Shown here piece by piece: positions 2,256 to 54,957 of a stretch of DNA of 64,000 bases. The DNA is from a bacterium (lineage in GTDB: Bacteria; Bacteroidota; Ignavibacteria; Palsa-1295): contig JBAWZA010000011.1 of the NCBI GenBank assembly GCA_037143335.1, positions 13,494-77,493 on the forward strand, written 5' to 3'. A program made the position numbers and the translations under genes. The notes under the pieces were generated by a model. It had not been told where the DNA came from, did no database searches, and worked only from the letters and a program-made list of their open reading frames with translations. Each line of letters starts with the position of its first letter. The stretch's first letter is position 1.

Positions 2256-2260
2256 TCAGT

Positions 2261-2839: not shown

Positions 2840-2874
2840 TCCGTCCGTACAAGTCTCGCGGACTATGAGTCCGC
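2825..2874. repeat. Two tandem hairpins (GGGACGGAC-TCTTA-GTCCGTCC and GCGGACT-ATG-AGTCCGC) between rsmD and coaD; member of the 'GGGACGG-N-CTCTTAG' palindromic repeat family (family C)
   Basis: Perfect inverted repeats read directly from the sequence. The rsmD TAG stop (2837-2839) overlaps the first hairpin loop/stem junction. A near-identical hairpin lies at 51297-51319. Confidence 0.5.
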
Positions 2875-2889
2875 GCTACTAACTATTGT

Positions 2890-14110: not shown

Positions 14111-14117
14111 TTTTTTT

Positions 14118-27814: not shown

Positions 27815-29043
27815 TTAGTTTATTTTCAAAATGATTTTCGTTATGATCTTGCCCGAATAATTAATCTTAATAAAATACGCACCTGCTGGGTAGTCGGAGA
27901 GATCAAGATGATATGAGCTTGAGAATTTTGGTGTGTATCTCGCCGCCACCACTCCTGCGGAATTAGAAATGACAAGGTCACTAATTTCTGCGCCACTCGT
28001 TTGAATGGTCGTTACTCCAGTGGTAGGATTTGGAAAAAGTAAAATTGCATCAACTGTAGGTTCTGATTCTACCTTGCTCAAACTCGGTGTAAAGATTTGG
28101 TTGGCATTCATCGGCTCGATTCCGTCAGTGCCGCCAAGTACATAAATTTTGCCGTTGACGGATGCAGAGGTGAGGGCATAACGTGTAGTCAATGTATCTT
28201 TTGTGGTTACGGAATCCCATGAGTTTGTGGCTGGGTCAAAAACATCAACCGTATTCACCGGCGTACCAAATACTGAACCACCAAAGACATAAATCTTTCC
28301 ATTTGCGTATGAGCATGTCAATTCATCACGAGCAGTAAATGAGCCACTCACTGGTGGTGATGACCATGTATTGCTCGAAGCATCAAAAATATAAACAGAA
28401 TCTAAATCGGTGAATCCGTCATATCCGCCGAAGACATAAATTTTATTCCCAATCGCGCACGATGTCATCTTTATCATCGCAGGAAACCGACCTGCTGTAG
28501 TTGGAGTACTCCATTTATCAGCGATAGGATCATAGACTTCAAGCGTATTGAGAATGCCAACCCCAACACCATTGGCTCCCCCAATTGCATAAATTTTATC
28601 ACCAATGACGCTCACAGTTAATGCTGATCGCGGTGTCGGCATGTTCGATTTTGCATTTGTCCACGAGCGATTGGCGGGATCATATATTTGTACGAGTGAA
28701 AGGTCGCCACCATTTGCTCCGCCGATGACATAGATTTTATCCTTTACCGCCGCGGTTGCCAAATACTGTCGAGGTTTGAATGTTCCAGTTGTGGTCGGGG
28801 TCTCCCAATGATTTGCAATTGGGTCATATACTTCAAGTCGGTTGCTCTGATACGTATGGCCGTCCACTTTGCCGTCTTCATTGCCACCGAATACATATAT
28901 TTTGCCACCTACGACGGAGGAGGAGAGTGCATATCTCCGCGTAAATCCAGTCGTATCGCCTTTTGTCCATATTCCGAAATGCGATTGTGAAAAGACTAAC
29001 GCCGGTAGTGCGATGAGAACAAGAGCAATGAGAAATTTCATAA
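27815..29043 (-). CDS. Kelch-repeat beta-propeller secreted protein with T9SS C-terminal sorting domain
   Basis: Likely start MKFLIALVLIALPALVFSQ at 29043 (the track ORF extends to 29203). Repeated 'GGxxxx...Y(V/I)FGG...W' Kelch blades are present. The C-terminus ...VESEPTVDAILLFPNPTTGV...YFIKINYSGKIITKIILKIN matches a Por tail pattern. Confidence 0.65.
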
Positions 29044-29078
29044 GAGTATCTGATAATGAGATAGGTACTTTAGTATAA

Positions 29079-30719
29079 CTATTTTTTTGCAGAGATAAAT
29101 GCTCCAATTCCGCAGAGGAGAATAATTGTGACCCCAATTTGGGAAAGCAGGTTTCCTGTTTTCTCCGGAGTGCTTTCAACAATTTGCAATTGATAGTGAT
29201 CACTGATTGTCGGTAGAGTAGCTGTAATTCTTCCGAGCGAATCGCAGCGTAGCGGAATTTCGCCCCCTCGACGATTCCTCAAATGCCAAGTGGGGAAGTG
29301 GGTACGATGAAATACAACGGGAAGGGGAGATCGGAGTGAATTCGTTTCAAAGTCAATGAGTTCGGATTCATCTCTCGTAATTGTAAGCTGCTCACTTCCA
29401 TTTGTCCCCACGACCGCAGGATCGTGAGTATGCAGAGGAAGGGTCACTCTATACCACTCGATATTATTTGAAGATGCTGCAGGCAAATACTCTGGCACGT
29501 CGAGATGGTCTGCTGATTCTTGGTACTTCCACGATTGATTATGCGGAGCGAAATAAAATGAAGCTGCGATGAGTAAGGTAAGAAACGACATAGTACCAAT
29601 CATTGCACGAGAATCTAGCTTTGACTCTTTTGCATTGTGACTGATTGCAACAAGCATGCCACACGCTAAGACAGCGACGACATTCCACCGATAACTGAAT
29701 TGGATATACTGGAACAAAGGCATGAATTTTAAGCCGAAGAAGAAGAGATAGGGCAACTGAATGACTGTTGCAATAATTACGAATACTCTCAAGATTCTCA
29801 TCAGATTATGCTCATGTTGCGCGCGACGAATCCGGATGTATCTCATTAATATCCAGAGATCAAAAAAGAAAATCAGAACTAATGCAACGTAGGTCCCGCT
29901 TTTGGTTGCGCCAATGAAAATACCTGTGCTGCCTTCGTCTTGTAAGAAATTCCAAATACTAAATACTTTGATGAATGGACTAAAGCTGAATGCCGGAAGT
30001 AGAGAAAGTGCCGCGGTGAACACCCCGATTATTCCTCCAGCAATTATGGTAATCACTGAGAAATAGTTCTTCGTTCGATCATGCCGAAGGAAATAATAGA
30101 TCGGCGTAGCATAGAGTAGAATGGCAGTGGTTGGGATGTTAGAGAGAAGAACACCTGCCCAGCCAATCGATGAAAGAGCGACACTTTGTAAGGTAGATTG
30201 TCGTGTCCGTGATTGGATAGCTTGTTCAATCCCCAGAAGAATAAGTGGTATAAATACGAATGCCCAGTGTTCACCTATCGAATTTCGGAGAGACAGATCA
30301 ACGAAACGATAGGGGTGGATACCGTATATTAGTGCACCGATGAAGGCAGATTTTTTTTCAATTGCATAGACACGCATGAAAAAGTAAAAAGTAATTATCG
30401 AGAGGAGCGTCGCAATAAACCCTTCAAGATGATAGATAGCAATCGGAGAAGTGCCGACTACATACGAAGACAATCCTGCGCACCAATACGCGAGCGGTGG
30501 ATAGAAATAAAAAGCAGGTGAACCAAAACCCCAAAAAGATTTAGGCAGCCAACGAGGGTAAAGCGCACCAGACCGGAATAATTCTGGAAATTGCGACAGC
30601 CAATTGAGATGAGTTATAGAATCATGCCCAGTGATTGGGAACACGAATGCCATAAAAATTTGCAAGCCAAGCACTCCGCAGAAGAGCCAGAGGCTGAGCC
30701 GCAATACAAACTTAACCAT
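29079..30719 (-). CDS. Polytopic integral membrane protein, GT-C-fold glycosyltransferase-like (function unknown)
   Basis: 546 aa with ≥10 predicted TM helices in the N-terminal two thirds and an extracytoplasmic C-terminal domain. The N-terminal HDSITHLNW...YPRWLP...FYFYPPLAYW pattern resembles membrane glycosyltransferase/YfhO-like families, but this assignment is weak. Confidence 0.4.
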   Translation of the reverse strand: MVKFVLRLSLWLFCGVLGLQIFMAFVFPITGHDSITHLNWLSQFPELFRSGALYPRWLPKSFWGFGSPAFYFYPPLAYWCAGLSSYVVGTSPIAIYHLEGFIATLLSIITFYFFMRVYAIEKKSAFIGALIYGIHPYRFVDLSLRNSIGEHWAFVFIPLILLGIEQAIQSRTRQSTLQSVALSSIGWAGVLLSNIPTTAILLYATPIYYFLRHDRTKNYFSVITIIAGGIIGVFTAALSLLPAFSFSPFIKVFSIWNFLQDEGSTGIFIGATKSGTYVALVLIFFFDLWILMRYIRIRRAQHEHNLMRILRVFVIIATVIQLPYLFFFGLKFMPLFQYIQFSYRWNVVAVLACGMLVAISHNAKESKLDSRAMIGTMSFLTLLIAASFYFAPHNQSWKYQESADHLDVPEYLPAASSNNIEWYRVTLPLHTHDPAVVGTNGSEQLTITRDESELIDFETNSLRSPLPVVFHRTHFPTWHLRNRRGGEIPLRCDSLGRITATLPTISDHYQLQIVESTPEKTGNLLSQIGVTIILLCGIGAFISAKK

Positions 30720-30742
30720 TTCAGGTGAGGATCGTTTCTCGC

Positions 30743-31972
30743 TTACACATACGCCTCTTCGCCATGTAACGAGAGATCTACCCCGCGTTCTTCTTCGTGA
30801 GCCTCGACTTTAACTGGAGTAATCATGTTAATGATTTTTAACATGACGTATGTGAATGTAAATCCATAGATTGCCGCACCAACAGTTACGCCAAGTTGTA
30901 AGAAGAAAAAGCTTGAGTTGCCGAGGAGAAGTCCGTTGACTCCGGCAGAGTTCACTGCCGAATCTGCAAAGACACCAAGTAGTATCACTCCGATACATCC
31001 GCCGACACCATGCACACCCCAGACGTCAAGAGCATCATCCCATCCACGTTTATTTTTAAGTTGAACGGCAAGGTAGCAGACGATGCCAGCGCAGATTCCG
31101 ATTATGACAGCACTTGTTGTCGAAACGTAACCAGCCGCGGGAGTTATCGTTGCAAGCCCTGCGACTGCACCAGTGAGTAATCCGAGAAATTTTGGTTTAC
31201 GAGATGCACGCCACTCCATGATGAGCCAAGCAATTGCTGCAAATGATGCGGCGATGTCTGTGTTCAAAAATGCAAGAGCAGTCACACCATCAACTTTGAA
31301 TTGCGAACCCGCATTGAATCCGTACCAACCAAACCATAACAATCCCGTACCGAGTGCAACGAGTGGGATGCTATGAGGCACTCCATCTCCGACCTTTCGC
31401 TTCCCCACATAAAATACCGAAGCAAGAGCAGCGAAACCTGCGATTGCATGAACTACAATTCCGCCAGCAAAATCTTGCACGCCCCATGAAGCTAATAATC
31501 CACCACCCCAAACCATGTGAACAAATGGAAAATACACGAACAACAACCACATTGTGAGGAAGAGCATATACGCAGGGAAGCGCACGCGGTTTGTGAATGC
31601 TCCTGTAATAAGCGCGGGTGTGATAATCGCGAACATCATTTGATATGCTACAAATACCATGAGCGGGATATTTGGCGTCAGTGGCGAAGGCGTTGTCACT
31701 GTGATGCCGCGAAAGAATGACATATCAAAATTTCCGATGATCCCACCGAGGAGATCGCTATGTGATTTCATGTCACCACTGAAGCACATCGAGTATCCAC
31801 AGATAAACCAGAGCACAGTTGTGAATCCCATCGAGACAAACGATTGCATCATGATTGACAGCACATTTTTTCGTCCGACTAATCCGCCGTAAAAAAATGC
31901 CAAGCCTGGTGTCATTAACATCACGAGGCTCGTGGCAATTAACATGAAACCTGTATTCCCAGTATCGAACAT
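30743..31972 (-). CDS. amt: Ammonium transporter (Amt family)
   Basis: Motifs DTGNTGFMLIATSLVMLMTPGLAFFYGG and the twin-His-containing central region are present. The probable start is MFDTGNTG at 31972; the longer track ORF extends to 32044. Confidence 0.85.
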   Translation of the reverse strand: MFDTGNTGFMLIATSLVMLMTPGLAFFYGGLVGRKNVLSIMMQSFVSMGFTTVLWFICGYSMCFSGDMKSHSDLLGGIIGNFDMSFFRGITVTTPSPLTPNIPLMVFVAYQMMFAIITPALITGAFTNRVRFPAYMLFLTMWLLFVYFPFVHMVWGGGLLASWGVQDFAGGIVVHAIAGFAALASVFYVGKRKVGDGVPHSIPLVALGTGLLWFGWYGFNAGSQFKVDGVTALAFLNTDIAASFAAIAWLIMEWRASRKPKFLGLLTGAVAGLATITPAAGYVSTTSAVIIGICAGIVCYLAVQLKNKRGWDDALDVWGVHGVGGCIGVILLGVFADSAVNSAGVNGLLLGNSSFFFLQLGVTVGAAIYGFTFTYVMLKIINMITPVKVEAHEEERGVDLSLHGEEAYV

Positions 31973-32087
31973 AGTAGTATCTCCGTTAAGAATAGTAAAC
32001 AATCGGTAGCTAATATACGGACATAACGCCACAAGCCCCATCAATTCCAGACCAAAACGGAAAACACAATATTTGCGTTAATATCTG

Positions 32088-33707
32088 ATGATGAACATGA
32101 AAAATATCAGCAGATGTATTGTTGTGCAAGCGTTCGCGCTTCTGATGGTGGCAAGTTCCAGTTTTGCTCAGCTAACGATTGTCGTAAAGATGGACCCGCT
32201 CTATCGTAGCGGCGGCAAGGTCGAGCTATCTCTGAGTGGATTCGGCGACGAGCTTACGGATTTTTACGGCGTATTCCCTGATCAAAATCTGGTAAACAAA
32301 ATCACCATTTGTGGCAAGATTGGCACTGCCGATAGCACCCGCAAGAAGCTTGGACTTATCCAGTTGAATCCTGATGGGAGTTTCAATACTTCGTTTGGTT
32401 TGGGTGGTAAAACGATTATGAATTGGGGTATCTCCGATTTCCCGAACACGATGTATGTCAGCCCCATAGATAATAGTGTGGTCTTGGGTGGAATGAATGC
32501 AGCTTCAGAAGTACTTGCCGAACATCGCCCGACGCTCTTTAAATTTGACGCATTCGGCAAGCCTGATCTGAGCTTCGGCGTTGGTGGACATGCCATTGCG
32601 CAAGTAGATTCAGTTAACGGTGGGTACGTGACTAATGTGTACCCAGAGGATTCATCATACCTCGCATGTGGTGCTGTAATGGGACCGGAGCATCCTGTTG
32701 GTTTTTGCGCTATCAAATATAATCCGCACGGCATCTTGGACTCATCTTTCGGGAAAGACGGAATCTCGATTATTCCCGCACAGATCGGATACAGTGCCGG
32801 CTTTCTGACTACCAATGACTCAATCGTTTTTGTTGCAGAAGAAATTACTGGTGGCGGCATATCGCCAAAGTCAGCCGAGATTATTATTGGAAAGTTAGAC
32901 GAAAAAGGCAAACCTGTTTCGTCATTCGGTATCAACGGCATTCTTCGCACTGGAGTAAAATTTAATCCACTTTTGGGTTCATTGCGTGCGGCGATTCAAC
33001 CAAATTATAATATTGTTTGCTCATTTCCACCGATTGGTATTTCCCCACTCGAACCGATTCACATGACACGGTTTCTTCCAGATGGCACCGTAGATACTTC
33101 ATTTGGAACAAAGGGTGATGTAGTCATTAATTTTACAAACGGCATCTCGCGAGCTAATGGGATAACAGTTGCTAAAAACGGCAAGTCAACAATTGCGGGC
33201 AGTGCTCTGAATGCTCTCGATCAGTGTGCTGCGGCACGCTTGAATGTTGATGGCTCACCTGATATAAGTTTCAACTTAGTCGGCACAACTGTGATTGATG
33301 TTGATTCAGGAGCGCATGCGAATTGGCTCACTAAGTTAATCGGGATTGGGAATAAAAGATATTATGGCGTGGGGACATCGGTACATAATGGGATCCCGAA
33401 TTTTATGATTGTGCGTTTCAAAGATGACACAACATTCTCACGCATTGGTCTTGTCCAAGACAACGATGGTGTTGCTGCTTACCCTAATCCGGCAGTGGGA
33501 CACATTAGTATCACGAGTGCGAACGCATTGATAAAATCGGTTTCGCTCTACGATGCTATCGGTCGGCGTGTAGATGCTACAGAGATGCGAGAGAATGAAA
33601 AGTCAACAACGCTTACCTTAACACAACTCCCTGCAGGAATGTATCATTGCGTTATCGAAACTTCCGATGGAGTCGAGACACGAAAAATTATTATTGGGTC
33701 GAGGTAG
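32088..33707 (+). CDS. Delta-60-repeat (D-x-S/T-F-G-x-x-G) secreted protein with T9SS C-terminal sorting domain
   Basis: Signal peptide. Repeated DGS(F/L)(N/D)TSFG..G units are present (NPDGSFNTSFGLGG, LDSSFGKDG, VDTSFGTKGD, PDISFN). The C-terminus AYPNPAVGHISITSA...YHCVIETSDGVETRKIIIGSR matches a Por tail pattern. Confidence 0.6.
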   Translation: MMNMKNISRCIVVQAFALLMVASSSFAQLTIVVKMDPLYRSGGKVELSLSGFGDELTDFYGVFPDQNLVNKITICGKIGTADSTRKKLGLIQLNPDGSFNTSFGLGGKTIMNWGISDFPNTMYVSPIDNSVVLGGMNAASEVLAEHRPTLFKFDAFGKPDLSFGVGGHAIAQVDSVNGGYVTNVYPEDSSYLACGAVMGPEHPVGFCAIKYNPHGILDSSFGKDGISIIPAQIGYSAGFLTTNDSIVFVAEEITGGGISPKSAEIIIGKLDEKGKPVSSFGINGILRTGVKFNPLLGSLRAAIQPNYNIVCSFPPIGISPLEPIHMTRFLPDGTVDTSFGTKGDVVINFTNGISRANGITVAKNGKSTIAGSALNALDQCAAARLNVDGSPDISFNLVGTTVIDVDSGAHANWLTKLIGIGNKRYYGVGTSVHNGIPNFMIVRFKDDTTFSRIGLVQDNDGVAAYPNPAVGHISITSANALIKSVSLYDAIGRRVDATEMRENEKSTTLTLTQLPAGMYHCVIETSDGVETRKIIIGSR

Positions 33708-33708
33708 A

Positions 33709-35403
33709 TTAACGGAGCACGACAAGAGTCGCTCGCTCTTGACCGAGTGAGATATGGTAGTGACCTACTGCCATTTCTGCTGTCGAAACTGCATATTGAG
33801 TTGAACCTCTTTCGATGAGTTCATCTACAAGCATTGCGCCTTTGAGATCAACGATGCTTATCCGCTCATCGTTTGTGAGCGCAGGGAAACTTAGCATCGC
33901 ATAGCTCGTCGCAGGATTCGGAGTGATATGGAGGTTGCCTTGTGCAATTTTTGGTTGCGGGACACTGCCGATGGCATCAACGATGAAATTTGCCATCATT
34001 CCTCCATCAGCGTGCTCGAGTTTATGGCAATGAATGAGAAATAGTCCAGTGTACTCTGTAAATTTTACAAGTACATTTACCGTACCCTGAGGGTCGAGTC
34101 TCACAACATCTTTCCAACCGCCTTCTGTCGGATCTGGCGGTGCACCGTTACGATTGAGTACTTGAAAATATGAACCATGGACGTGGATAGGATGTGTATT
34201 CTGAGCTTCACTCACAAACTCCCACCGCTCAAGATCTTGGATGGGTACATTTGCATCAATGAGATCCAATGAATAATTGTGCTCGTTCACATGGTGAGTC
34301 GCAGCAAAAATCCATGTCCTTGTTCGCTTTGCATCTGCTACATTATATTTTTCAATTGCTGGAAGTGCAGTTGGGACTGTTCCGTTCGTTACTACGGACT
34401 TCGTAACTTGAAATAAAAGCAAATTCATTGCTGCGCCTTGTGCAACAGTCCCCGAACCCGGTCCGTCACTGAAGGTAAACTTCAGTGATTGTAAGATCAC
34501 TGATTGACCGACGGTGTAGGATGAAAAATCAATGAGAATATCAAGTCGCTCAGCAGGAGCCAACCATGCGGCACTCATTTGGATCGGCTTTTCCATAAAG
34601 CCGCCATCATTGCCGATGACGGTGAATGTTTTTCCGTCGGCTAAAGCAAGTTTATAGAATCTGGAGTTCGAGGCATTGACTACGCGGAATCTATAAAGCG
34701 TCGGAGCTACATTTACAAATGCATTCGGTGTACCATTGATGAGGATTGTATCGCCAAGCCAACCGCTGTTAATGTCAACGGTTGAAGGGTCATAAATCAA
34801 CTGAGAGTTCGCATCGAATCGCTTATCTGTAATCATCAGCGGAATCTCGAACTCGCCAGAGGGCAGGCCCAATGCTTTCTCTTCATCGTCTTCAACGATG
34901 AATAATCCTGCAATTCCCATATAGACTTGCTTGCCAGTACCAACGCCCGTCGCCATATTCATATTCGGATGAGCATGGTAAAAGCTTGCGCCTGCGCGTT
35001 GTTTGATAGGGAAATTAACAGAGTACGAATTACCCGAATCAATCGCGTACTTCGGATGTCCGCCCATCTCGCTTGGCGCATGAATACCATGCCAATGCAA
35101 GATAGAGTTCTCACCTAAATTATTATGGATATTCGCCGTGAATGTATCGCCTTTCTTCACACGAATCGTCGGAGCGGGAAAAGAATTATTCACCAGATAC
35201 ATATCCGTATTGATGCCCGGATAAAGCTGAGCGCTTGCCTTCGCCAACGTTAACTCGCCACCCGTGATGACAGGCGGAATTCGAAGCTCTTGCATTGCTT
35301 CTGGAGCATTGCGAACACTTGCGTCGGCATTACTGAATTTCGCACTCGCGGCAAGTACTCCGAGCTGCGCACTGCGCTTAAGAAAATTTCTGCGGTTAAT
35401 CAT
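33709..35403 (-). CDS. Multicopper oxidase (laccase/CueO-like) with twin-arginine (Tat) signal peptide and T9SS C-terminal sorting domain
   Basis: The N-terminus MINRRNFLKRSAQLGVLAASA is a Tat motif. Copper-binding motifs are HWHGIH, HPIHVHG and HCHKLEHADGGMM. The C-terminus LHITPNPATSYAMLSF...HYHISLGQERATLVVLR matches a Por tail pattern. Confidence 0.8.
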   Translation of the reverse strand: MINRRNFLKRSAQLGVLAASAKFSNADASVRNAPEAMQELRIPPVITGGELTLAKASAQLYPGINTDMYLVNNSFPAPTIRVKKGDTFTANIHNNLGENSILHWHGIHAPSEMGGHPKYAIDSGNSYSVNFPIKQRAGASFYHAHPNMNMATGVGTGKQVYMGIAGLFIVEDDEEKALGLPSGEFEIPLMITDKRFDANSQLIYDPSTVDINSGWLGDTILINGTPNAFVNVAPTLYRFRVVNASNSRFYKLALADGKTFTVIGNDGGFMEKPIQMSAAWLAPAERLDILIDFSSYTVGQSVILQSLKFTFSDGPGSGTVAQGAAMNLLLFQVTKSVVTNGTVPTALPAIEKYNVADAKRTRTWIFAATHHVNEHNYSLDLIDANVPIQDLERWEFVSEAQNTHPIHVHGSYFQVLNRNGAPPDPTEGGWKDVVRLDPQGTVNVLVKFTEYTGLFLIHCHKLEHADGGMMANFIVDAIGSVPQPKIAQGNLHITPNPATSYAMLSFPALTNDERISIVDLKGAMLVDELIERGSTQYAVSTAEMAVGHYHISLGQERATLVVLR

Positions 35404-35444
35404 TGTAGTAAAAACGAAAGTCTGAGGAAAAAAGGTCAGATGAA

Positions 35445-36719
35445 TTATTGCTTTATGATTTTTGCGTAAGTAACACCACGATCTTTTTGAAAGATTAATT
35501 GATACATTCCGTTCGGAAGTGATGAAAGATCGAGTACTGTTTTTTCTTCAGACCCTAACTCAAACCGCATGACCTCAATGCCTCCAATATTTTGCACGAT
35601 GAGTGATTTAAAGGATTGCGGTTTGTGAATTGTTACTTTTGCTGAGAGTGGATTCGGGAACACGTTCATCTCTTTCGGTTCGGATTCATTGTGAACCCCG
35701 CCTGGCAATATAGTAAAAACTTCATTGAGATTGACAATTTGATTTGCATCTTTTCCACCTAAGACATAAATTCTCCCATCCACAGTAGCGGAGGCGATAC
35801 CTGCCCTGCCTGTCATTGAGCCAGTGATGTGAGGTGTAATCCATAAATTAGCGGAAGGATCGAAGACCTCTACGGTGTTTAAATAAGAGATGCCATCGTA
35901 ACCACCGATAACAAAAATTTTATCGTCAACCACAACAGAAGTTAATCCTTGTCTCGGGGTAAACGTCCCGCTTGTTGTTGGAGTCGTCCATGTGTTGGTT
36001 GCAGGATCGAATACCTGTGGCGAAGGGATGTCTTTCGTTGCGCCCTGCCCGCCGAATACATAAATTTTTCCGCCGACAACTCCTGCCGTCAGATCTGATC
36101 GTGCACTCATCGCACCAGTCATGACCGGTGTGCTCCAACTGGAATCGGATGGATCATATACTTCAACAGTACTGAGATAGCCTATATCAGTGTTATAGCC
36201 ACCAATCACGTAGATCTTATTATTCACAACTACGGCGGCGGCTCTCCACCGTTTGGTTAGATTTCCTTTTGTTAGGGGAGTGCTCCACGATGAAGTAGCT
36301 GGGTCAAAAACGTCAAACGTATTTAGTGCACCTGAACTATCATACCCACAGATCACATGAAATTTTCCACCCACATTCGCAACACATGATCCTTTCCGCG
36401 GTGAAAATAAACCAGTAGTGGAGAGGGTAGTCCAGGATTGTGTCTTTGTATCATAAGTCTCGACTTGACCAATATATGTTTTGCCGGTATAGCCACCGAA
36501 CGTAAAAATTTTCCCATCAAGAGCGATGCAAGCGAAAGCATTTCTTGCGGTAAATCCGGATGTTGGCTCACTGCTCCATGACCCTGAAATTGATTGCGCC
36601 GAGACTTCTGAGGTTGAAAAAAAACTTGAGCAACATACAATAATGGCAATAAAAAAACAAACCCCATTGCAGTGCAACAGGGTTCGCTTTGAAATTTGTA
36701 TGTTGGCTAAGCCTGCCAC
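35445..36719 (-). CDS. Kelch-repeat beta-propeller secreted protein with T9SS C-terminal sorting domain
   Basis: Signal/TM N-terminus. Six or more Kelch-like blades ((K)I(Y/F)V(I/F)GG ... W(S/T)TP). The C-terminus NVFPNPLSAKVTIHK...GMYQLIFQKDRGVTYAKIIKQ matches a Por tail pattern. Confidence 0.65.
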   Translation of the reverse strand: MAGLANIQISKRTLLHCNGVCFFIAIIVCCSSFFSTSEVSAQSISGSWSSEPTSGFTARNAFACIALDGKIFTFGGYTGKTYIGQVETYDTKTQSWTTLSTTGLFSPRKGSCVANVGGKFHVICGYDSSGALNTFDVFDPATSSWSTPLTKGNLTKRWRAAAVVVNNKIYVIGGYNTDIGYLSTVEVYDPSDSSWSTPVMTGAMSARSDLTAGVVGGKIYVFGGQGATKDIPSPQVFDPATNTWTTPTTSGTFTPRQGLTSVVVDDKIFVIGGYDGISYLNTVEVFDPSANLWITPHITGSMTGRAGIASATVDGRIYVLGGKDANQIVNLNEVFTILPGGVHNESEPKEMNVFPNPLSAKVTIHKPQSFKSLIVQNIGGIEVMRFELGSEEKTVLDLSSLPNGMYQLIFQKDRGVTYAKIIKQ

Positions 36720-36724
36720 GCTTA

Positions 36725-38440
36725 TTATTGTTTAATTACGAGTACGTTAAAAAACGCAGGTGCAGTGTTTGGTGTAAATGGTTGATTGTTCAAGCTCAAG
36801 ATAGACCATTTACCGCGTGCATTGTCATACGCTACTCCAACCGCCTGCTTGTAGAGTCCGTTGGCAGGAGCATTCAAATCCTTGGTTACGAATGTGACGA
36901 ACACCATGCAACTTGGATCACCATTGCAGATTGGGTTATCAATTTCTGTGCGAGCAGTTGTGACAAGATTCGCATTTGAGACCTGATGAACAAATGCAGT
37001 TTTGTTTGTACCGCTTACTTTGATTGCTCCGTTATCGAGTTGCATCGCTACCCCAATTCCAGTACCTGTGTATGTTGCCTTCACGCCTGCACCGTTCGGA
37101 GACGCTGTCTCGCCAACAACACCGACTGCAGAGCCATTGACGGCAGTTGATTTACCATAGACACCGTTACCACTTGGTGTTTCGCCATAGATCGCCGTGC
37201 CTGTTCCGCCTTGATAACCGATGACTCCGTATCCGAGATTCGTTGTGCTTGTATTGATACCACGTACACCAGCACTCCATTGTGAAGTGGCTCCGCCATT
37301 TGCGCGACCGATTACACCACTCGGACCGACTTGTGAATTCGTACCATTGTTCGTACCATTTGCTTCGCCAAGTACGCCTGTACCGCTATTTGCACCATAG
37401 CCGACTCCATGCAATCCGTTTGAGCCATCAGCGATAGACGTACCCATAATTGCATCGCCATTTCCTGTTGTTGATGCTTCAACCACGTTTGAATTATTGG
37501 CGGCATTTGTGATCTGAAAAGATCCTGCACGACCCGTGTTGCTCATCGCGCTCAAACCGTTGCCCATATCGCCAAGAGCGAGAACGCCAGTGGTTGTGCC
37601 GACTCCGCGACCCAAGATACCTGCAAAGTTGGCATTGCCTCCGTTGCTATATCCAACGACTCCGTTATATCCATTACCGCCATCACCCCAGATAGTAGCA
37701 TTTGACACAATACTTAATCCTGCACCACCTGTAATATCAACCGAGTGAATTCCAGAACCAGTAAGACCAGAATTAGTGATTGTCAGAAGTGGATTGACAT
37801 CATTTGATCCACTTACATTTAATGGCAATGCCAAATTTTGTAGAGGAGCGACGATCTTGATAATTCCATTCGACTCTGATACTTTTACGCCACCTTCACC
37901 GACGAGGGTAAGGTCACCTTGAATACCATTGAGCGTACGAACAACTCCAGTTGCGGCGAGTGTCAAGCCACCAGCTACATCCGCCATGTCGGCATGATCT
38001 GCATTCGTTGCGTTCACGGCATTCGAGGCAGAAACTGCATTGAGTGCATAAGGTGAAGCTACGATGAGTGTGCGCGGAGTGAGTTCAGCTCCGCCATCAA
38101 CAGAGACGCCCAAATAAAAACCAGTGTCAAACTTTACATTCGCTGGAAGTGCAGTCACTGAGCCTACGTTCAAGGAGAACAATCCGCCAACGGTGTGTAC
38201 ACTTTGATTCTCGGTATATACCTCGGCTCCGCCTGTCTGATTTTTGTAGAGACGGATCGTCAGGGTATGTGTTCCATCAGGAACAACCTTGCCAGCACCG
38301 TCAGCTAATGAGCCTTGGTAACTAAAAAGACGAGGCGCTTGAGCAGAGGCTACAGAAGAGCAAATCCCGAGTATCAAGCTTAGGATAAGGAATGAGCGAA
38401 GCAATTTTGTAAATGTTGGTAGCATAATGGTTTTCAACAA
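36725..38440 (-). CDS. Secreted glycine/asparagine-rich repeat protein, phage-tail-fibre-like architecture (function unknown)
   Basis: Signal peptide (LILSLILGICSSVASAQA). The N-terminal FSYQGSL.DGAG..V.DGTH.L.IRLY module is typical of tail-fibre-domain proteins. It is followed by a long G-x-G/N-rich repeat region. No obvious Por tail. Confidence 0.45.
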   Translation of the reverse strand: MLKTIMLPTFTKLLRSFLILSLILGICSSVASAQAPRLFSYQGSLADGAGKVVPDGTHTLTIRLYKNQTGGAEVYTENQSVHTVGGLFSLNVGSVTALPANVKFDTGFYLGVSVDGGAELTPRTLIVASPYALNAVSASNAVNATNADHADMADVAGGLTLAATGVVRTLNGIQGDLTLVGEGGVKVSESNGIIKIVAPLQNLALPLNVSGSNDVNPLLTITNSGLTGSGIHSVDITGGAGLSIVSNATIWGDGGNGYNGVVGYSNGGNANFAGILGRGVGTTTGVLALGDMGNGLSAMSNTGRAGSFQITNAANNSNVVEASTTGNGDAIMGTSIADGSNGLHGVGYGANSGTGVLGEANGTNNGTNSQVGPSGVIGRANGGATSQWSAGVRGINTSTTNLGYGVIGYQGGTGTAIYGETPSGNGVYGKSTAVNGSAVGVVGETASPNGAGVKATYTGTGIGVAMQLDNGAIKVSGTNKTAFVHQVSNANLVTTARTEIDNPICNGDPSCMVFVTFVTKDLNAPANGLYKQAVGVAYDNARGKWSILSLNNQPFTPNTAPAFFNVLVIKQ

Positions 38441-38575
38441 TCGAATTAATGAGTTTTACTTGGTTTTTGAGAACCAACGGGTATGTCCTTTAGTGCCGAA
38501 CGTCGAGGCACCCAAAAAACGCTTCTTGTCGTTCTAACGTTAGGAAAATCGGCTATATCTAAACTTGCTACGACT

Positions 38576-40198
38576 ATGACTTATACTTTACGCACTGCTC
38601 TCTGTATTTCATGCCTCCTTATGCTTTCCCGAATCGCTGTCGGTCAGTACGGAATTGATGTGGACAAATCTTTCGGGACTGGTGGGACAACCGAACTTAC
38701 CATTGGTGGATTCAATAGCGAGATAGCTGCTTTCGATGTGAATCACATCACGAAAATTACGACCATGGCAGCACGCTTGAGTCTCGCAAGCTCTGCGAAT
38801 TATCATATCGGAATGGTCAGGCTTGATACAGCAGGGAAGTTGGACCCAACATTTGGCACAGGTGGCAGTGCGGATTTATCATGGGGTCAGTCCGACAATG
38901 TGAACGCAATGCAACGCCAACTTGAGAACGATAGCATATACTATAATATGTATATTCTCGGTGGATCGAGCAGGGGCACAGCCGTGAACGAGCCTTCAAT
39001 TTACCGCATCAAAGCCAATGGCAGCCCAGATGTAAGTTTCGGAAATGCGGGGAAAATAGTCGTAAAGTTTGCGGATCATTCCGGTGGCGAGGTCACCAAT
39101 GTCGTCAGTGATTTCGGCACCCGTTCCTATTATGTGTATGGCAAAAGCTCAGCATCCGATGAATTAGGAAAAACAGGCTTCGGAGTTGCTCGGATAAAGT
39201 GGAATGGTACGTTTGATTCCTCTTTCGGAAAAGAAGGCAAGGTTATCATTCCTGTCCCCATCCACTCAGTCAACGGTTTTGCCTCACTTCATGGCACTCT
39301 GCAAGGCGCAAGTTATTCCTTGGTTTGCGGAATATGCGATACAGGTCTGAATGAAATTGTGATTGCGAGGGTGAGTGATCAAGGAATTCTTGATTCATCA
39401 ATAGGCGTGAACGGAATCGTCCGAACAGGGAAGTACGCTTCGGCAACGGAGAATATCATGGCGGCATTGCAGTTGCCTGATTTAGATAAACTACTGATCT
39501 TATTACAACCCCCAAAACAAAATCCTACTCCGGTAACGATTTGTCGATTTAAGTCCGATGGCAAGCCTGACTCCACCTATGGATTTGCAGGTGTCTCGTC
39601 GAATTCAATAGCTCCCGGTATCGAGCCGAGAGGATTGAACATACTTAATGACGGCAGTGCAGGTGTGGCAGGAATATACAATTCTGGGTTAGGGCATTCC
39701 ATCTTTACACGAGTCAATGACACAACAGCAGTGCCCGATCCAAAATATTTCCCGAATGGAATTGCCGTCTTTGATTTGGATAACGGGAAATATTCCAACT
39801 ATCTAAAGTTCTACACACCAACAGGCAAGGAAGGTAATTGTAAGAAGTACATCGCTGTCGGAGGTTCGATTCATGATGGTGTTGAGTACATGATGGCAGT
39901 GAGATTCTCGACCTGTCCGCTTGCAGCGGTTGAGCCTGAGGTGATTGCAGGAGATGATTTTTCAATTTACCCAGATCCGGCTGGATCGGAGATAAAAATT
40001 TCTACTCACTCCACATTGGAGGACATTCAGATCACGGATAATGTTGGTACTGTCGTCTATTCGGTTAACCTCAAAAACTCTGGAGCCAACCAAGAAGCCT
40101 ACCGAGTTAATGTTGCGCACCTTCCTTCAGGGTCGTATTTGTGTAGTGTCATTATGAACGGCAAGAAAATCACGAAGCATTTTGTGGTGGTGCATTGA
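38576..40198 (+). CDS. Delta-60-repeat secreted protein with T9SS C-terminal sorting domain (paralogue of 32088..33707)
   Basis: Likely start MTYTLRTALCISCLLMLSRIAVGQ at 38576 (the track ORF begins at 38483). Repeated D(P/S)(T/S)FG.GG units are present. The C-terminus DFSIYPDPAGSEIKIST...YLCSVIMNGKKITKHFVVVH matches a Por tail pattern. Confidence 0.6.
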   Translation: MTYTLRTALCISCLLMLSRIAVGQYGIDVDKSFGTGGTTELTIGGFNSEIAAFDVNHITKITTMAARLSLASSANYHIGMVRLDTAGKLDPTFGTGGSADLSWGQSDNVNAMQRQLENDSIYYNMYILGGSSRGTAVNEPSIYRIKANGSPDVSFGNAGKIVVKFADHSGGEVTNVVSDFGTRSYYVYGKSSASDELGKTGFGVARIKWNGTFDSSFGKEGKVIIPVPIHSVNGFASLHGTLQGASYSLVCGICDTGLNEIVIARVSDQGILDSSIGVNGIVRTGKYASATENIMAALQLPDLDKLLILLQPPKQNPTPVTICRFKSDGKPDSTYGFAGVSSNSIAPGIEPRGLNILNDGSAGVAGIYNSGLGHSIFTRVNDTTAVPDPKYFPNGIAVFDLDNGKYSNYLKFYTPTGKEGNCKKYIAVGGSIHDGVEYMMAVRFSTCPLAAVEPEVIAGDDFSIYPDPAGSEIKISTHSTLEDIQITDNVGTVVYSVNLKNSGANQEAYRVNVAHLPSGSYLCSVIMNGKKITKHFVVVH

Positions 40199-40346: not shown

Positions 40347-41609
40347 TCATGGTTCTACTACTGCTACTTTACCAGCTATCGCATACACGCCTTTCCAATC
40401 GGCGCGTTCAACCAGGACATAATAGATTCCGCGGGGGATAGAGGAAATATCTACAGTCAATGGTGCATTATCTAAGGTCATCCCTGTAATAACCGATCTA
40501 CCAAAGACATCTATCATCTTGAACGGTGTGCCTCGCTCAACCGAGGCGATAGTTAGACGGGTTGTTGCGGGATTGGGATAGACGCGACTATTATAATGTA
40601 ACTTTCCGGATTCTTCTACTCCGGCTCCACCAATGGAAAGGACTTGAACTAAATATGTGGTATCGAGATTAAAGCCTCCGATCACGTAAACCTTATTACC
40701 ACCACTCGTCGCACTTGGCTCAAATCTGCTACCAAATGTGCCTGATGTATTGAGCAAACTCCATCTGTTTGTTGCAGTATCAAAGACTTCAGTATTGCTG
40801 AGATTTCTCCCACCATGGTACCAATCGCCCCCGCCGATTGCATAAATCTTACCATTGATTTCCCCTAGAGAATTATCCAATCTGGGATACGCCAATGAAT
40901 TTTTCTGTGGACTGCTCCATTTATTCGTAGCTACATCGTAAATTTGAAGGTCACAATGACAAGTTGAGTCAGGTGGAAGACCCACAACATAAATTTTATT
41001 TCCCATCGCTACTGCGTGTGGTGAATAAACTTGATGCATTGAATCAACAGTGTAAGGTGGAGTAGTCCAACTGTGTCTTTTTGTATCATAAATTTCAACT
41101 GTAGTCAACCATCCGATATTCCTATCGTTTCCACCGACAACGTAAATACTATCTCCTATTGAGCAAGAAGTAGCCAAACCTCGATCCGTGAATAATAAAC
41201 TGCCTTCTCTTAGATCATCCGTTGTCCAAGTATTAGTTTGAGGATCAAAAACTGAAACGCTATCGGCAAATGTGGTATTATCAATCTCACCTCCAATGAC
41301 ATATATTTTGCCGTTTAAAACGGTTGCTGTGTGGGAGGCGCGTGGTAGAAAGCTTCCTTGGGTTTGTGGAGTACTCCAGGAATTAGATGCTATATCATAA
41401 ACCTGTAGAAGGTTTATCGGGAATCTCCCATCATACCCACCGATACAATATATTTTACCATTAAAATAGGATGAACTTAATCCATCTCTATTTGGAGTAA
41501 ATCCCACTTTTGAAAGAGTCTTCCAAGAAGCAGACTGTGCCTGCACTTCTGATAAATCTATCAGAAGCGCAAGGACAGCCACAAGTATGAATATTCTTGT
41601 AATTTTCAT
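40347..41609 (-). CDS. Kelch-repeat beta-propeller secreted protein with conserved CHC motif and T9SS C-terminal sorting domain (cassette 1, gene 2)
   Basis: Likely start MKITRIFILVAVLALL at 41609, in a TAATG overlap with the upstream Cys-rich gene. Kelch blades are present, plus the PDSTCHCDLQIYD motif. The C-terminus YPNPATTRLTIASVERG...YYVLVERADWKGVYAIAGKVAVVEP matches a Por tail pattern. It is a paralogue of 54958..56271. Confidence 0.65.
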   Translation of the reverse strand: MKITRIFILVAVLALLIDLSEVQAQSASWKTLSKVGFTPNRDGLSSSYFNGKIYCIGGYDGRFPINLLQVYDIASNSWSTPQTQGSFLPRASHTATVLNGKIYVIGGEIDNTTFADSVSVFDPQTNTWTTDDLREGSLLFTDRGLATSCSIGDSIYVVGGNDRNIGWLTTVEIYDTKRHSWTTPPYTVDSMHQVYSPHAVAMGNKIYVVGLPPDSTCHCDLQIYDVATNKWSSPQKNSLAYPRLDNSLGEINGKIYAIGGGDWYHGGRNLSNTEVFDTATNRWSLLNTSGTFGSRFEPSATSGGNKVYVIGGFNLDTTYLVQVLSIGGAGVEESGKLHYNSRVYPNPATTRLTIASVERGTPFKMIDVFGRSVITGMTLDNAPLTVDISSIPRGIYYVLVERADWKGVYAIAGKVAVVEP

Positions 41610-42298
41610 TACATGCCACAGGGTGGATGATAACAAGTTCCGTCTGTAAGCCAATCACCAACCTTCGTTGGTGCATCATCGCAATCAACTGTGCCTTGAG
41701 TAGTGTAGGTTACATTGCTCGTCTCAATCGCTCCATTGTTACCTCTGCAAAGATCAAAACTCATCACACAATAACTGTTGAGATGACAGGGGATAAATGC
41801 CCAGCGATTTGGGCTGGTTGAAATCTGTATTCTCTTGAAACATGCAGGAAGAAACATTTGCGAATGCCATGTTATGACCGGTCCAGTACAAGGTGGTACG
41901 TTTCCTGTACTGATTAGTGGGATCAAGTCAGCTTTTACCGCGGCGGAAATCTGTGCTACAAAGTCCGCTGTTGTAATGTTATTATTACAGCCTGCCACAG
42001 AATCGATCCTCGTTATAACGCTCTGGAATGTCACATCGCCAGAAAAGGGGAAATTATGTACTTCCCGCCAACAGTAACAAACAGTTACGTCACAACCACC
42101 AGTAATTGAAACGACAAGTTGGACACTGTTCCAACTGTAGCATGTTGCCCCTCCAGGACAACCTAAAGTTATTCCGGAGCAACTTGGACATTGCGCCTCC
42201 ACCGCAGTTGTAAAAAGCAAAAGCGTGAGTATAATTCCCGCTATGCTGGAAGTGAATTTGGCAAACAGTTTATTGAATGATTGTTGATAGTGTTCCAT
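41609..42298 (-). CDS. Cysteine-rich (~20 Cys) secreted protein of unknown function (cassette 1, gene 1)
   Basis: 229 aa; signal peptide ending VEAQ. The mature region CPSCSG...GCDVTVCYCWREVHNFP...CDDAPTKVGDWLTDGTCYHPPCG aligns with 54299..54955, conserving most cysteines. Confidence 0.6.
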   Translation of the reverse strand: MEHYQQSFNKLFAKFTSSIAGIILTLLLFTTAVEAQCPSCSGITLGCPGGATCYSWNSVQLVVSITGGCDVTVCYCWREVHNFPFSGDVTFQSVITRIDSVAGCNNNITTADFVAQISAAVKADLIPLISTGNVPPCTGPVITWHSQMFLPACFKRIQISTSPNRWAFIPCHLNSYCVMSFDLCRGNNGAIETSNVTYTTQGTVDCDDAPTKVGDWLTDGTCYHPPCGM

Positions 42299-42457: not shown

Positions 42458-42468
42458 GGGGGGGGGGG
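42458..42468. repeat. Homopolymeric G11 tract in the divergent intergenic region (candidate slipped-strand phase-variation site)
   Basis: The sequence gcgggggggggggtaaacc is read directly. It lies ~160 bp upstream of the Cys-rich gene start (42298, minus) and ~390 bp upstream of the E1 gene start (42858, plus). Confidence 0.6.
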
Positions 42469-51831: not shown

Positions 51832-53712
51832 TTGCGCGCCGTACTATTTATCCTTTTTTTCACCCTAGTTCTCACGGGGGAATCATATTCTCAATCCTTC
51901 GCCCCACAAGGTCGCAGACTTCCGCCTTCGCTCGAGCGCGAACTCAAGCTCAAGCACGGTGGCAAGGTGCGCATCGTCGGCTTCACCGATACCCTCAAAG
52001 CACAGAGCATTATCGCCAGTAGCATCCGTGATAGTGCGAGCATCGAACTTGATTCACTTACTGCCAAAGACTCCGCTATTGTTACAATAGACTCCGCTGT
52101 ATCGCTCACGGATAAAGAGTGGCTTGACTCCATGCTTGCGCAATTGCCGGAGTATAAAAATACTCCGCAGGGGATAAGGTTTCACTATCCTGCCGATATT
52201 CTCGTCGAGACAAATCGTAAAGTTGTGCCACCCGATTCGACGATTGCTTCGCGTATGGACCCAGTCACGAAAGAAGACCTTCCGCTCTATGGTGATATGG
52301 CGATGCCCAAACCGCTTCCAGATAAATCATTGCCTCGGACGCGAATTGAAGCGGCACTTGGCTCGCCGTATATTCCCATTCTCAGTGTGAATTCTCTTGT
52401 GCTAACAAATGAAACGACGGCACTTGTCTGCGATGGATTTTTCAAGACGACTCAGGCTGATGAAGTCGCGACCAAACAATATTGGCACCTCGGTGCACAT
52501 GTAAGTTTTCTCTTCCCTCCATCACCACTCGAACTTACCCAGCGAGTACCTCAACTTGAGTTAAGTGCACTGACGGGTGCAACGAAGCGGGTATTAGGCG
52601 ATAGCAACACGACGCATTCATTGAGCGAGTCCGAACTTAGTACTCGGTTCACGATTGGTCAGCAATCTCAATTGAAATTAATATCTCAAGGTTCGGTTGG
52701 GTTTTTGCATGATGAATCAACCGTGGGAATTTCGGAGACAGAAGCAAAACTAAAGCTATTGCTCGCCAAAGATATCCCGAACTCAAGCTTCACGACTTCA
52801 TTGAGTTTAAGAGCCGAGTATGCAAGTCAGCCCACGATTGACTCGCAGTTGAGTGGCACAAAAATATTTCCGAACCTAAATAATACGTGGACGCATTCAG
52901 TGAATCTTGGTGAAGCGCAATTAGTACTTGAGCAAAAAGAGGCAGCGCCAATCAGATGGCTGGCAGGAGTATCATTTACAAGTGGTAGTGATGCAAGCGG
53001 TAATAATGCTGCTATCTCTCCACTTGCGAAAATCATTTTCCATCCGTCCAACAAATCAGAATTTGGCGTTTCGTTTTGGCCACAGACCGAAGTCTCTGAT
53101 TTTGCGAATATGTTTGCGCACGCACTTTTTTATTTTCCGATTATTCCATCAAGCACCCATTCAGCCGACACAAGGCGCATCATCACTGAGCCAATTCACC
53201 TGACGATCTTCGGAAATTATTTTCTGTCACTTTTGAACGAAGCGCACGCAGAGATTCGGTATGTCGAGCGGAATAACGAACCTGTGTTCGAGCGCGACTC
53301 CCCCAGTGGTATTTTCTACGCAAGGCCTATGAATACAAAACATCTTGAGATCGAGGCAAATATTTCCGCTGAAGTTTTCGGTAAAGACAGAGTACGCGCC
53401 TCTGGAACCATCAGTTCATCAGCGGAGAAAACCTCTGGGAAGATATTGCCGTACGAACGAACCCTCGAGCTTCATGCAAATTATGAATTCCGAAGATTCT
53501 CAGATGCTTTCGTGCCTTCGATAGCATTTGTAGATTTCGCACGACCAGGTCATACCTTCACTTTCTTGAATGCAGAACTAGAATATCTTTTTTTGCCAGC
53601 ATTCAAAGCATTCTTCAGAGCAGAGAATATCTTTAACGCACAAAACGACTTCTGGTCCGGCTATAGCGAATATCCGCAAGCGTTCAGGGTTGGAGTTTCG
53701 TACAATTTTTGA
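51832..53712 (+). CDS. Putative outer-membrane beta-barrel protein
   Basis: 626 aa with a signal peptide. Amphipathic beta strands alternate in the C-terminal two thirds, and the protein ends in the aromatic ...FRVGVSYNF. Confidence 0.45.
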   Translation: MRAVLFILFFTLVLTGESYSQSFAPQGRRLPPSLERELKLKHGGKVRIVGFTDTLKAQSIIASSIRDSASIELDSLTAKDSAIVTIDSAVSLTDKEWLDSMLAQLPEYKNTPQGIRFHYPADILVETNRKVVPPDSTIASRMDPVTKEDLPLYGDMAMPKPLPDKSLPRTRIEAALGSPYIPILSVNSLVLTNETTALVCDGFFKTTQADEVATKQYWHLGAHVSFLFPPSPLELTQRVPQLELSALTGATKRVLGDSNTTHSLSESELSTRFTIGQQSQLKLISQGSVGFLHDESTVGISETEAKLKLLLAKDIPNSSFTTSLSLRAEYASQPTIDSQLSGTKIFPNLNNTWTHSVNLGEAQLVLEQKEAAPIRWLAGVSFTSGSDASGNNAAISPLAKIIFHPSNKSEFGVSFWPQTEVSDFANMFAHALFYFPIIPSSTHSADTRRIITEPIHLTIFGNYFLSLLNEAHAEIRYVERNNEPVFERDSPSGIFYARPMNTKHLEIEANISAEVFGKDRVRASGTISSSAEKTSGKILPYERTLELHANYEFRRFSDAFVPSIAFVDFARPGHTFTFLNAELEYLFLPAFKAFFRAENIFNAQNDFWSGYSEYPQAFRVGVSYNF

Positions 53713-53881: not shown

Positions 53882-54211
<330 letters not shown>

Positions 54212-54298: not shown

Positions 54299-54955
54299 AT
54301 GACAACAAAAAACAGAGCATACTCTTTTTTTAAGACGATAGGAATTATTCTTCCATTACTACTCTTTATTTCTCAGGCAAGGGCACAATGCCCATCGATA
54401 CCATGCCCAAATCCTGGGAATTGTACTGGATGGTCATCTGTAACTGGAGTTCCAGTTCATATTTCTAGCGGGTGTGACCTCTATGTAAACTATTGTTATA
54501 GGACGGTACACAATTGGCCTACTACAGGTTTCGAAACACTCCAGGCTGTCATCACTGAAATTGATTCTGACGCTCATTGTGATGATGATATCACTACTGC
54601 AAGTTTTGTTGCAGAAGTGCAGTCTGCGATCTCTGTAGATGCTTCAACACATGCTGTTTCACCACCCCCATGTAACAACCAAGTTAGTGGTAGTTATAAG
54701 ATGGAATTACGAACCCCTGCATGTTTGAAGCGTGTAGCAACTTCATACAATCATTACGCCCTTGTGATGGCTTGTGAGAGTACTACTTCATTTTGCTTGA
54801 TGACATGTGATCTGTGCCATGACAGTAATGGTACAACGCTGAAACAAAATTGTACATTTACTCTTGAAGGTACACCACCATGTGATGATGCACCAACCAA
54901 GATGGGAGATTGGCCAACGGATGCATGCAGACACCCAGTATGTGGCACTTTCTAA
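54299..54955 (+). CDS. Cysteine-rich secreted protein (cassette 2, gene 1; paralogue of 41609..42298)
   Basis: 218 aa; signal peptide ending ARAQ. The mature region CPSIPCPNPGNC...GCDLYVNYCYRTVHNWP...CDDAPTKMGDWPTDACRHPVCG has cysteines co-linear with the cassette-1 protein. Confidence 0.6.
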   Translation: MTTKNRAYSFFKTIGIILPLLLFISQARAQCPSIPCPNPGNCTGWSSVTGVPVHISSGCDLYVNYCYRTVHNWPTTGFETLQAVITEIDSDAHCDDDITTASFVAEVQSAISVDASTHAVSPPPCNNQVSGSYKMELRTPACLKRVATSYNHYALVMACESTTSFCLMTCDLCHDSNGTTLKQNCTFTLEGTPPCDDAPTKMGDWPTDACRHPVCGTF

Positions 54956-54957
54956 TT

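Follow-up and report, generated by a model that had tools for sequence, protein, structure and literature searches.

In methylamine and aromatic amine dehydrogenases, a beta-propeller heavy subunit is joined by a disulfide-rich light subunit, and in sortilin/Vps10 a ten-bladed propeller packs on cysteine-rich 10CC modules that lie C-terminal to it in the same chain. The propeller of galactose oxidase has seven blades. Recognition of cargo by type IX secretion systems (T9SS) is thought to require a C-terminal domain (CTD) on every substrate. For the twin-arginine translocation (Tat) pathway, an excerpt of PMC4273604 describes "hitchhiker" co-export, with Escherichia coli PaoABC as an example. 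We analyzed a 64,000-nt stretch of a bacterial genome of the Palsa-1295 lineage of the Ignavibacteria (assembly GCA_037143335.1, contig JBAWZA010000011.1, forward-strand positions 13,494 to 77,493), referred to here as the window, in which a two-gene cassette occurs twice. Each cassette is a predicted operon encoding two exported proteins, a small cysteine-rich protein (Cys1, Cys2) and a Kelch-type beta-propeller with a T9SS type-A CTD (Kelch1, Kelch2). The sequence comparisons set out below point to a conserved gene pair and to operons in which T9SS cargo is joined by a new and obligate partner, a module that appears to be undescribed.

The resemblance to sortilin lies in the combination of a propeller with a cysteine-rich module, and the propeller partners at four related loci match the Pfam Sortilin-Vps10/BNR families. 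Here, however, the cysteine-rich element is a separate chain, and apart from a sub-threshold Sublancin hit it has no Pfam or fold match. Homology to either methylamine dehydrogenase or sortilin has no sequence or fold support. The parallel to Tat hitchhikers is one of proposed logic, in which a subunit without a translocon signal is carried by a signal-bearing partner. It differs in that Tat is an inner-membrane translocon, that the Cys-rich protein has its own Sec signal, and that carriage by the T9SS is what we propose for the cassettes.

The two cassettes lie on opposite strands with 12 kb between them, an interval occupied by housekeeping genes (a fused E1 dehydrogenase, electron transfer flavoprotein alpha and beta, a solute-binding protein and an acyl carrier protein synthase). 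A preliminary description of this locus had reported the gene pair, its translational coupling through a TAATG overlap and a second copy at 54299..56271, all of which were confirmed from the open reading frames (ORFs) and alignments. The junction of Cys1 and Kelch1 reads GGC ATG TAATG AAA, with stop and start codons overlapping by 1 nt, and the Cys2 stop is separated from the Kelch2 ATG by 2 nt. Cys1 and Cys2 are 45% identical (E 1e-55) and Kelch1 and Kelch2 are 46% identical (E 6e-110), from which we take the cassettes to be old paralogues rather than a recent repeat. The shared sequence blocks that had been quoted, GCD..V.YC.R.VHN.P and CDDAPTK[VM]GDW in the Cys-rich proteins and YYVLVERAD.KG.Y.IAGK in the Kelch tails, are present in the paralogue alignments. 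By inspection, all four proteins begin with a hydrophobic leader that closes with A-x-A↓Q or similar (the arrow marks cleavage), so that processing at this site would expose an N-terminal glutamine on each of them. Such a "Q-rule" is characteristic of Bacteroidota, and Ignavibacterium album also has a high score for it (PMC5837995). A conserved fourth gene was considered and rejected: neither the 93-aa ORF after Kelch2 nor the ORFs after the Kelch gene of locus L005 are conserved. Rfam searches returned no RNA family across the whole window, and scans for sigma-70 promoters and terminators stayed at background level with models that are not suited to the host lineage.

Table 1 Positions of the cassette genes, the regulator and the repeat tracts in the window, followed by the propeller genes downstream of the Cys-rich gene at each informative locus
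Feature	Position	Strand	Description
Cys1	41609..42298	-	229 aa; signal peptide, likely cleavage VEA↓QCP; 16 Cys; ORF and translation
Kelch1	40347..41609	-	420 aa from ATG; signal peptide, six-bladed Kelch propeller, flexible linker, T9SS type-A CTD (predicted)
Cys2	54299..54955	+	218 aa; signal peptide, likely cleavage ARA↓QCP; 16 Cys
Kelch2	54958..56271	+	437 aa; Kelch propeller and T9SS type-A CTD (predicted)
GerE/LuxR-type helix-turn-helix (HTH) regulator	53882..54211	+	109 aa; directly upstream of cassette 2; Pfam GerE E 8e-12
C11 homopolymer	42458..42468	- (C on coding strand)	160-170 nt before the Cys1 start; candidate slipped-strand switch or regulatory tract
(GA)14 repeat	53905..53932	+	codons 8-17 of the GerE gene; encodes RERERERER
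Window cassette 1			downstream propeller: Kelch
Window cassette 2			downstream propeller: Kelch
L005 (P0003)			downstream propeller: Kelch
L006 (P0005)			downstream propeller: Kelch
L091 (P0006)			downstream propeller: Kelch
L003 (P0039)			downstream: two BNR/Sortilin-Vps10/Ycf48-like genes
L004 (P0037)	1068..5132		downstream: three tandem BNR/Sortilin-Vps10/Ycf48-like genes, all with Por tails
L007 (P0008)			downstream: BNR/Sortilin-Vps10/Ycf48-like
L010 (P0007)			downstream: truncated ORF, weak BNR/Asp-box match (E 0.007), conserved BNR-partner N-terminus

Co-conservation of the pair, for which the preliminary description had proposed a survey of related genomes, extends beyond this strain. 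A beta-propeller gene lies directly 3' of the Cys-rich gene in all nine informative family loci, namely those with a readable downstream gene (two further contigs were too short to count). The propeller is of the Kelch type in five loci and BNR/Sortilin/Ycf48-like in the other four. The distance between the two genes ranges from -17 to +32 nt and is 4 nt or less in eight of the nine. Paralogous cassettes are present in at least two genomes, the window genome and GCA_040007295.1 (L006 and L091). A contig from JGI, for which gene calls only were used, seems to hold two units. In one, a GerE gene is followed by a gene for a 206-aa protein with no Pfam match and then by one for a Por-tailed BNR protein of 755 aa. 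The contig is a probable further case of cassette duplication, in which the second Cys-like gene is putative.

The converse association is looser. With T9SS type-A propeller cargo from metagenome-assembled genomes (MAGs) of Ignavibacteriota and Bacteroidota, annotated as "kelch repeat-containing protein" or "T9SS type A sorting domain-containing protein", the Kelch partners share a Sec signal, a propeller and Por_Secre_tail/TIGR04183 matches above cut-off. They differ in that their subfamily has signatures of its own and in that ordinary Kelch-CTD genes have no Cys-rich gene ahead of them: a Kelch-alignment scan of reference genomes, used as a negative control, yielded 79 generic Kelch loci, of which none had a Cys-family gene within 5 kb. 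Even within the partner subfamily, the close Kelch genes of L090, L092, L093 and L094 (about 4 of 10) have other genes upstream and no Cys-rich gene. The dependency is one-sided: the Cys-rich gene is always accompanied by a propeller gene, but propeller genes also occur without it, which fits the Cys-rich protein as a dependent passenger. As side observations on these loci, the BNR partners of L004, L007 and L010 have in common the N-terminal motif Q[YF].W..TH...C.G..CTA.G, and in L003 (region noted, 13935..16648) the module lies about 4 kb from a gene for SprA, part of the T9SS translocon.

We further characterized the Cys-rich protein by sequence and structure searches. Against Pfam it matched Sublancin alone (E 0.1, with a score of 13 bits where the cut-off is 26.9), with nothing else at E<=1, and NCBIfam, PADLOC and PHROGs gave no match at all. 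Among PDB sequences, a profile search had a best E of 0.65 and nothing significant. The AlphaFold2 (AF2) model of Cys1 has a predicted local distance difference test (pLDDT) score of 88.9 and an N-terminal helix at residues 4-28, and fold searches of solved structures with it gave no convincing match. The statement that the arrangement could not be assigned to any described system holds for the Cys-rich protein, which founds a family that had not been described and whose fold appears to be new.

The family is small. In a word-index search of 5.8 billion proteins Cys1 retrieved only itself, and the same search with a 37-sequence family alignment returned five proteins. When 1.84 billion cluster representatives were searched exhaustively by HMMER with a Cys1 and Cys2 profile, 43 proteins were found at E<=1e-3, 19 of them at E<=1e-10, whereas metagenome and viral contigs searched with the alignment of Cys1 and Cys2 yielded no relatives. 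As the 43 representatives are all short (127-295 aa) and each contains one matched stretch, with no fusions, the family is real, rare, single-domain and never fused within this set. It is known from metagenomes alone.

Conservation was assessed on an alignment of 37 family members, with residue numbers taken from Cys1. Most members have 14-16 cysteines. Cys1 and Cys2 hold 16 each by count, fewer than the roughly 20 given in the preliminary description. Twelve cysteines are near-invariant (C37, C69, C76, C104, C137, C153, C171, C177, C184, C206, C222 and C227), and an additional pair that Cys1 does not have is found in 30 of the 37. The signal peptide ends in AQ↓CP, and a C-terminal motif, W-x(4-6)-C-[YF]-x3-C-G, lies a few residues from the end. 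The only other conserved positions are Q36, P38, W56, R78, Q92 and W216, with W56 kept in 36 of the 37 members and W216 in 28. There is no conserved histidine, aspartate, glutamate or serine column among them, which argues against the Cys-rich protein being an enzyme. The mature protein, predicted to be exported by Sec, is disulfide-rich and about 190 aa long; no C-terminal T9SS sorting domain, lipobox or membrane segment was detected in it. Whatever its mechanism, these data define a new, compact, disulfide-rich family; its fold is predicted with confidence and is without a relative among solved structures.

The propeller partners are of a more familiar kind. Kelch1 and Kelch2 each have five or six Kelch_1 matches, in six stretches in Kelch1. 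Both exceed the curated cut-offs for Por_Secre_tail (PF18962; 33.3 bits for Kelch1 and 38.7 for Kelch2, cut-off 27) and for TIGR04183 (27.7 and 34.2 bits, cut-off 23). Sec signal peptides were identified by inspection of the hydrophobic N-termini, with cleavage at VQA↓QSA in Kelch1 and AQG↓QVK in Kelch2. The AF2 model of Kelch1 (pLDDT 88.8) contains a signal helix at residues 3-19, six blades of four strands each (24 strands, within residues 27-326), a linker at 330-338 that is disordered and a seven-stranded CTD at 341-417. This last element is consistent with the Ig-like sandwich that an excerpt of PMC11285876 describes for T9SS CTDs. From the profile scores and the model, we assign the Kelch proteins to the ordinary type-A cargo class of the T9SS with a predicted six-bladed Kelch fold. 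A Por_Secre_tail was detected in the propeller partners at the family loci wherever the C-terminus is intact.

The best matches of Kelch1 among PDB sequences are the six-bladed propellers of KLHL20, KLHL12, Keap1 and IVNS1ABP and the designed SAKe propellers, with E values for the natural proteins down to 1e-30. The KLHL/Keap1 Kelch domains, which bind proteins or peptides, thus share the six blades, but they belong to cytosolic eukaryotic adaptors whereas the propeller here is an exported bacterial T9SS protein. The nearest named homologues of Kelch1 are from Ignavibacteriota MAGs, which, along with the abundance of T9SS tails in the window, suggests that the host is an Ignavibacteriota-like member of the FCB group. 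Its subfamily comprises about 10 sequences at 42% identity or more, recognizable by DS[MFL], CHC, a WYHGG insert and the CTD tail VLVER.D.KG....AGK. The preliminary description had singled out the CHC motif as shared by Kelch1 and Kelch2. It does belong to the subfamily signature, but it varies even in the nearest Kelch relatives: AYC takes its place in the Kelch partner of L006, which has a Cys-rich gene, and VHA in subfamily member P0051, while all four members lacking a Cys-rich gene have kept it. Because the motif is lost in a paired member and retained in unpaired ones, it looks neither catalytic nor like a marker of the partnership.

Upstream of the Cys-rich genes, two features suggest regulated expression. 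Small GerE proteins of 92-109 aa, with little beyond the HTH, are encoded ahead of the Cys-rich gene in cassette 2, in L007 (E 4e-8), in L003 (weak) and on the JGI contig. No GerE gene or remnant was found upstream of cassette 1 by tblastn or three-frame reading, and L005 has a divergent HTH_31 gene instead of GerE. The second feature is a simple repeat ahead of each window cassette. The C11 tract is the sole G/C run longer than 7 in the 64-kb window, and (GA)14 is the sole dinucleotide repeat of more than 5 units, the next longest having 5. A gain or loss of one unit in (GA)14 would cause a frameshift and a truncated regulator, since there is no alternative in-frame start before the HTH. Both repeats fall within 400 nt upstream of a Cys-rich gene, sequence that amounts to about 1 kb or 1.6% of the window, a coincidence that was spotted post hoc. 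TTTA-C11-GC also occurs in L003 (7737-7747), 264 nt upstream of its Cys-rich gene, although L003 is only 27% identical to the window cassette at the protein level; in the 1.1 Mb of all retrieved loci, C runs of at least 11 were found only at cassette 1 and L003. Simple-repeat contingency loci carry a long homopolymer or dinucleotide repeat at the promoter of the controlled gene or early in its coding sequence, and the positions of C11 and (GA)14 fit this pattern. The repeats suggest that surface display varies in uncultured Ignavibacteriota-like bacteria.

Taken together, we tentatively favor a two-subunit surface complex in which the T9SS domain of the propeller carries or anchors the Cys-rich subunit, possibly in a phase-variable manner. 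Coupled translation of the two genes would yield the Cys-rich protein and the propeller in a fixed proportion. The Cys-rich subunit would undergo oxidative folding in the periplasm and then dock on its own propeller, and the propeller CTD would take the folded pair through the T9SS or hold the Cys-rich subunit at the surface in a "piggy-back" display. As the T9SS translocates folded proteins (PMC9251779), carriage of a folded pair is mechanically plausible. In this scheme the propeller, Kelch or BNR, would be an exchangeable carrier or scaffold and the Cys-rich subunit the constant element. The complex would most likely bind a ligand, like an adhesin or receptor, and not act as a catalyst; the likeness of the Kelch partner to the protein-binding propellers of KLHL and Keap1 is counted in favor of a two-subunit complex, and a lectin/adhesin pair, as raised in the preliminary description, is a possible function for the two proteins. 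A dedicated small GerE/LuxR regulator would govern expression, and slippage in C11 and (GA)14 may turn each cassette on or off in this strain.

Several points weigh against this two-subunit complex. Physical contact between the Cys-rich protein and the propeller is proposed from gene linkage. No fused (Rosetta-stone) form of the two was present among the 43 representatives, and co-divergence of the Cys-rich proteins with their Kelch partners is weak (r = 0.38 for five pairs, 10 pairwise comparisons), so that it was not used as evidence. The Cys-rich protein could simply remain periplasmic. We know of no experimental precedent for piggy-back export by the T9SS, and a literature search for Kelch proteins, cysteine-rich proteins or piggy-back export in connection with type IX secretion returned nothing relevant. 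The informative contexts number only nine and are mostly short metagenome contigs. As for the repeats, the two available assemblies of the window locus agree at every position (100% identity) across 4167 nt, C11 included, though they may derive from the same sample, and L003 is, judging from its contig name only, probably a nanopore assembly in which the length of C11 may be unreliable.

If the proposal is true, a conserved CTD-less passenger would widen the definition of the T9SS secretome, and the cassettes would provide a natural system for the study of folded-complex export. Independently of the mechanism, the strict genomic signature of a GerE regulator, a Cys-rich gene and a propeller-CTD gene can serve for annotation. 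A bolder version, which we consider unlikely, is that the cassettes represent a new class of two-subunit T9SS complexes, with a disulfide-knotted CTD-less subunit, an interchangeable propeller carrier, the first T9SS "hitchhiker" and switching by repeats. To our knowledge, slipped-strand phase variation has not been described for Ignavibacteriota-like bacteria.

The alternative that survives best, although we think it improbable, is that the Cys-rich protein is a periplasmic escort or inhibitor that binds the propeller as a chaperone, holdase or inhibitor and is left behind on export. A Cys-rich protein with a Sec signal and no CTD is what such a role would call for, and the linkage, the coupling and the one-sided dependency fit it equally. 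The four close Kelch-subfamily members without an adjacent Cys-rich gene are harder to reconcile with an escort, as is L004, where one Cys-rich gene stands ahead of three propeller genes; a protein held by six to eight disulfides would be far sturdier than is usual in a transient chaperone, and we know of no type-A CTD cargo that needs a dedicated escort.

Somewhat more doubtful, in our judgment, is a linkage without a complex, in which the two proteins would act separately on the same target, for example as a soluble binding or signaling protein and a surface propeller, and would be co-transcribed for co-regulation. Operon conservation alone is not proof of contact, and the weak co-divergence agrees with separate action. 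Nevertheless, in eight of nine loci the stop and start codons overlap or lie at most 4 nt apart, an arrangement that is kept at a sequence identity of about 25% and is usual for stoichiometric partners, and the exchange of Kelch for BNR with the Cys-rich protein kept argues for a generic scaffold and not for a specific independent activity.

A third reading, by analogy to methylamine dehydrogenase, would make the pair a quinoprotein-like enzyme, with an inert propeller as heavy subunit and the disulfide-rich protein as light subunit whose cofactor is built from its own residues, such as the conserved tryptophans. The architecture is analogous in that both systems have two exported polypeptides, a propeller and a small protein with six to seven disulfides (about six) and conserved tryptophans, here W56 and W216. 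The resemblance does not extend to sequence or fold in PDB searches, and no locus contains maturation genes (a MauG-like heme protein or a radical SAM protein) or linked electron-acceptor genes. Methylamine dehydrogenase is periplasmic, display at the surface by the T9SS would be odd for a respiratory dehydrogenase, and the propeller family, which would have to be the heavy subunit, varies from locus to locus and is interchangeable. We regard this reading as very unlikely.

The weakest proposal, that Kelch is a galactose-oxidase-like copper-radical oxidase acting through CHC with the Cys-rich protein as partner and linked to a multicopper oxidase, came from the preliminary description and is already largely refuted, leaving it hardly any probability in our view: in its favor stand the Kelch-type blades, Kelch_3/Kelch_4 Pfam matches described as "Galactose oxidase, central domain" and a Por-tailed multicopper oxidase 5 kb away, but Kelch_3 and Kelch_4 are generic Kelch-motif models, Kelch1 has six blades instead of seven, the best 60 PDB sequence matches of Kelch1 are KLHL, Keap1 and SAKe propellers with no galactose oxidase among them, the Cys/His motif is unconserved as described above, an unrelated BNR/Sortilin-type propeller replaces Kelch in four family loci, and the gene calls for the other family loci examined include no multicopper oxidase. 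The neighboring multicopper oxidase itself does exist and has a Por tail (33709..35403, - strand); it is less close a neighbor than had been implied, as three genes and a distance of about 5 kb separate it from cassette 1, and it belongs to a series of genes for T9SS cargo at 32-42 kb.

The wider surroundings of the cassettes are rich in T9SS cargo. A run of such genes occupies 27815..40198, with cassette 1 at its edge, whereas cassette 2 is placed among housekeeping genes. No recognised T9SS component gene was found within the window, though it encodes many further Por-tail proteins. Members of the run, besides the multicopper oxidase, include Kelch4 (real start at about M55, with a Por tail), Kelch3 and two DUF5122/delta-60-repeat propellers with Por tails (32088..33707 and 38483..40198) that are 29% identical to each other.

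A third pair of a CTD-less protein and a Kelch-CTD protein occurs in this run. A 571-aa protein (36725..38440, - strand) is followed after 5 nt by Kelch3 (35445..36719, - strand; 424 aa), which has a Por tail, is 32% identical to Kelch1 and is without CHC. The 571-aa protein is secreted, Gly/Asn-rich and fibre-like, with a C-terminal DUF7452 and a weak match to the N-terminus of the Bdellovibrio mosaic-adhesive-trimer. It was considered as a hidden member of the Cys-rich family and rejected (hidden Markov model E = 3). Likewise, a 546-aa protein upstream of Kelch4 was considered as a secreted partner and rejected as a polytopic membrane protein.

Directly upstream of the GerE gene of cassette 2 is a gene for a 626-aa protein (51832..53712, + strand) with a signal peptide and no Pfam or NCBIfam match; its C-terminus, GVSYNF, is typical of an outer-membrane beta-barrel, and it was not found in other family loci. 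Finally, two ORFs of exactly 1337 aa (10097..14110, + strand; 21171..25184, - strand) encode HYDIN/ASH-type Ig-like domains and Por tails. They have no mutual BLASTP similarity at E<=1e-5, and their equal length looks coincidental.

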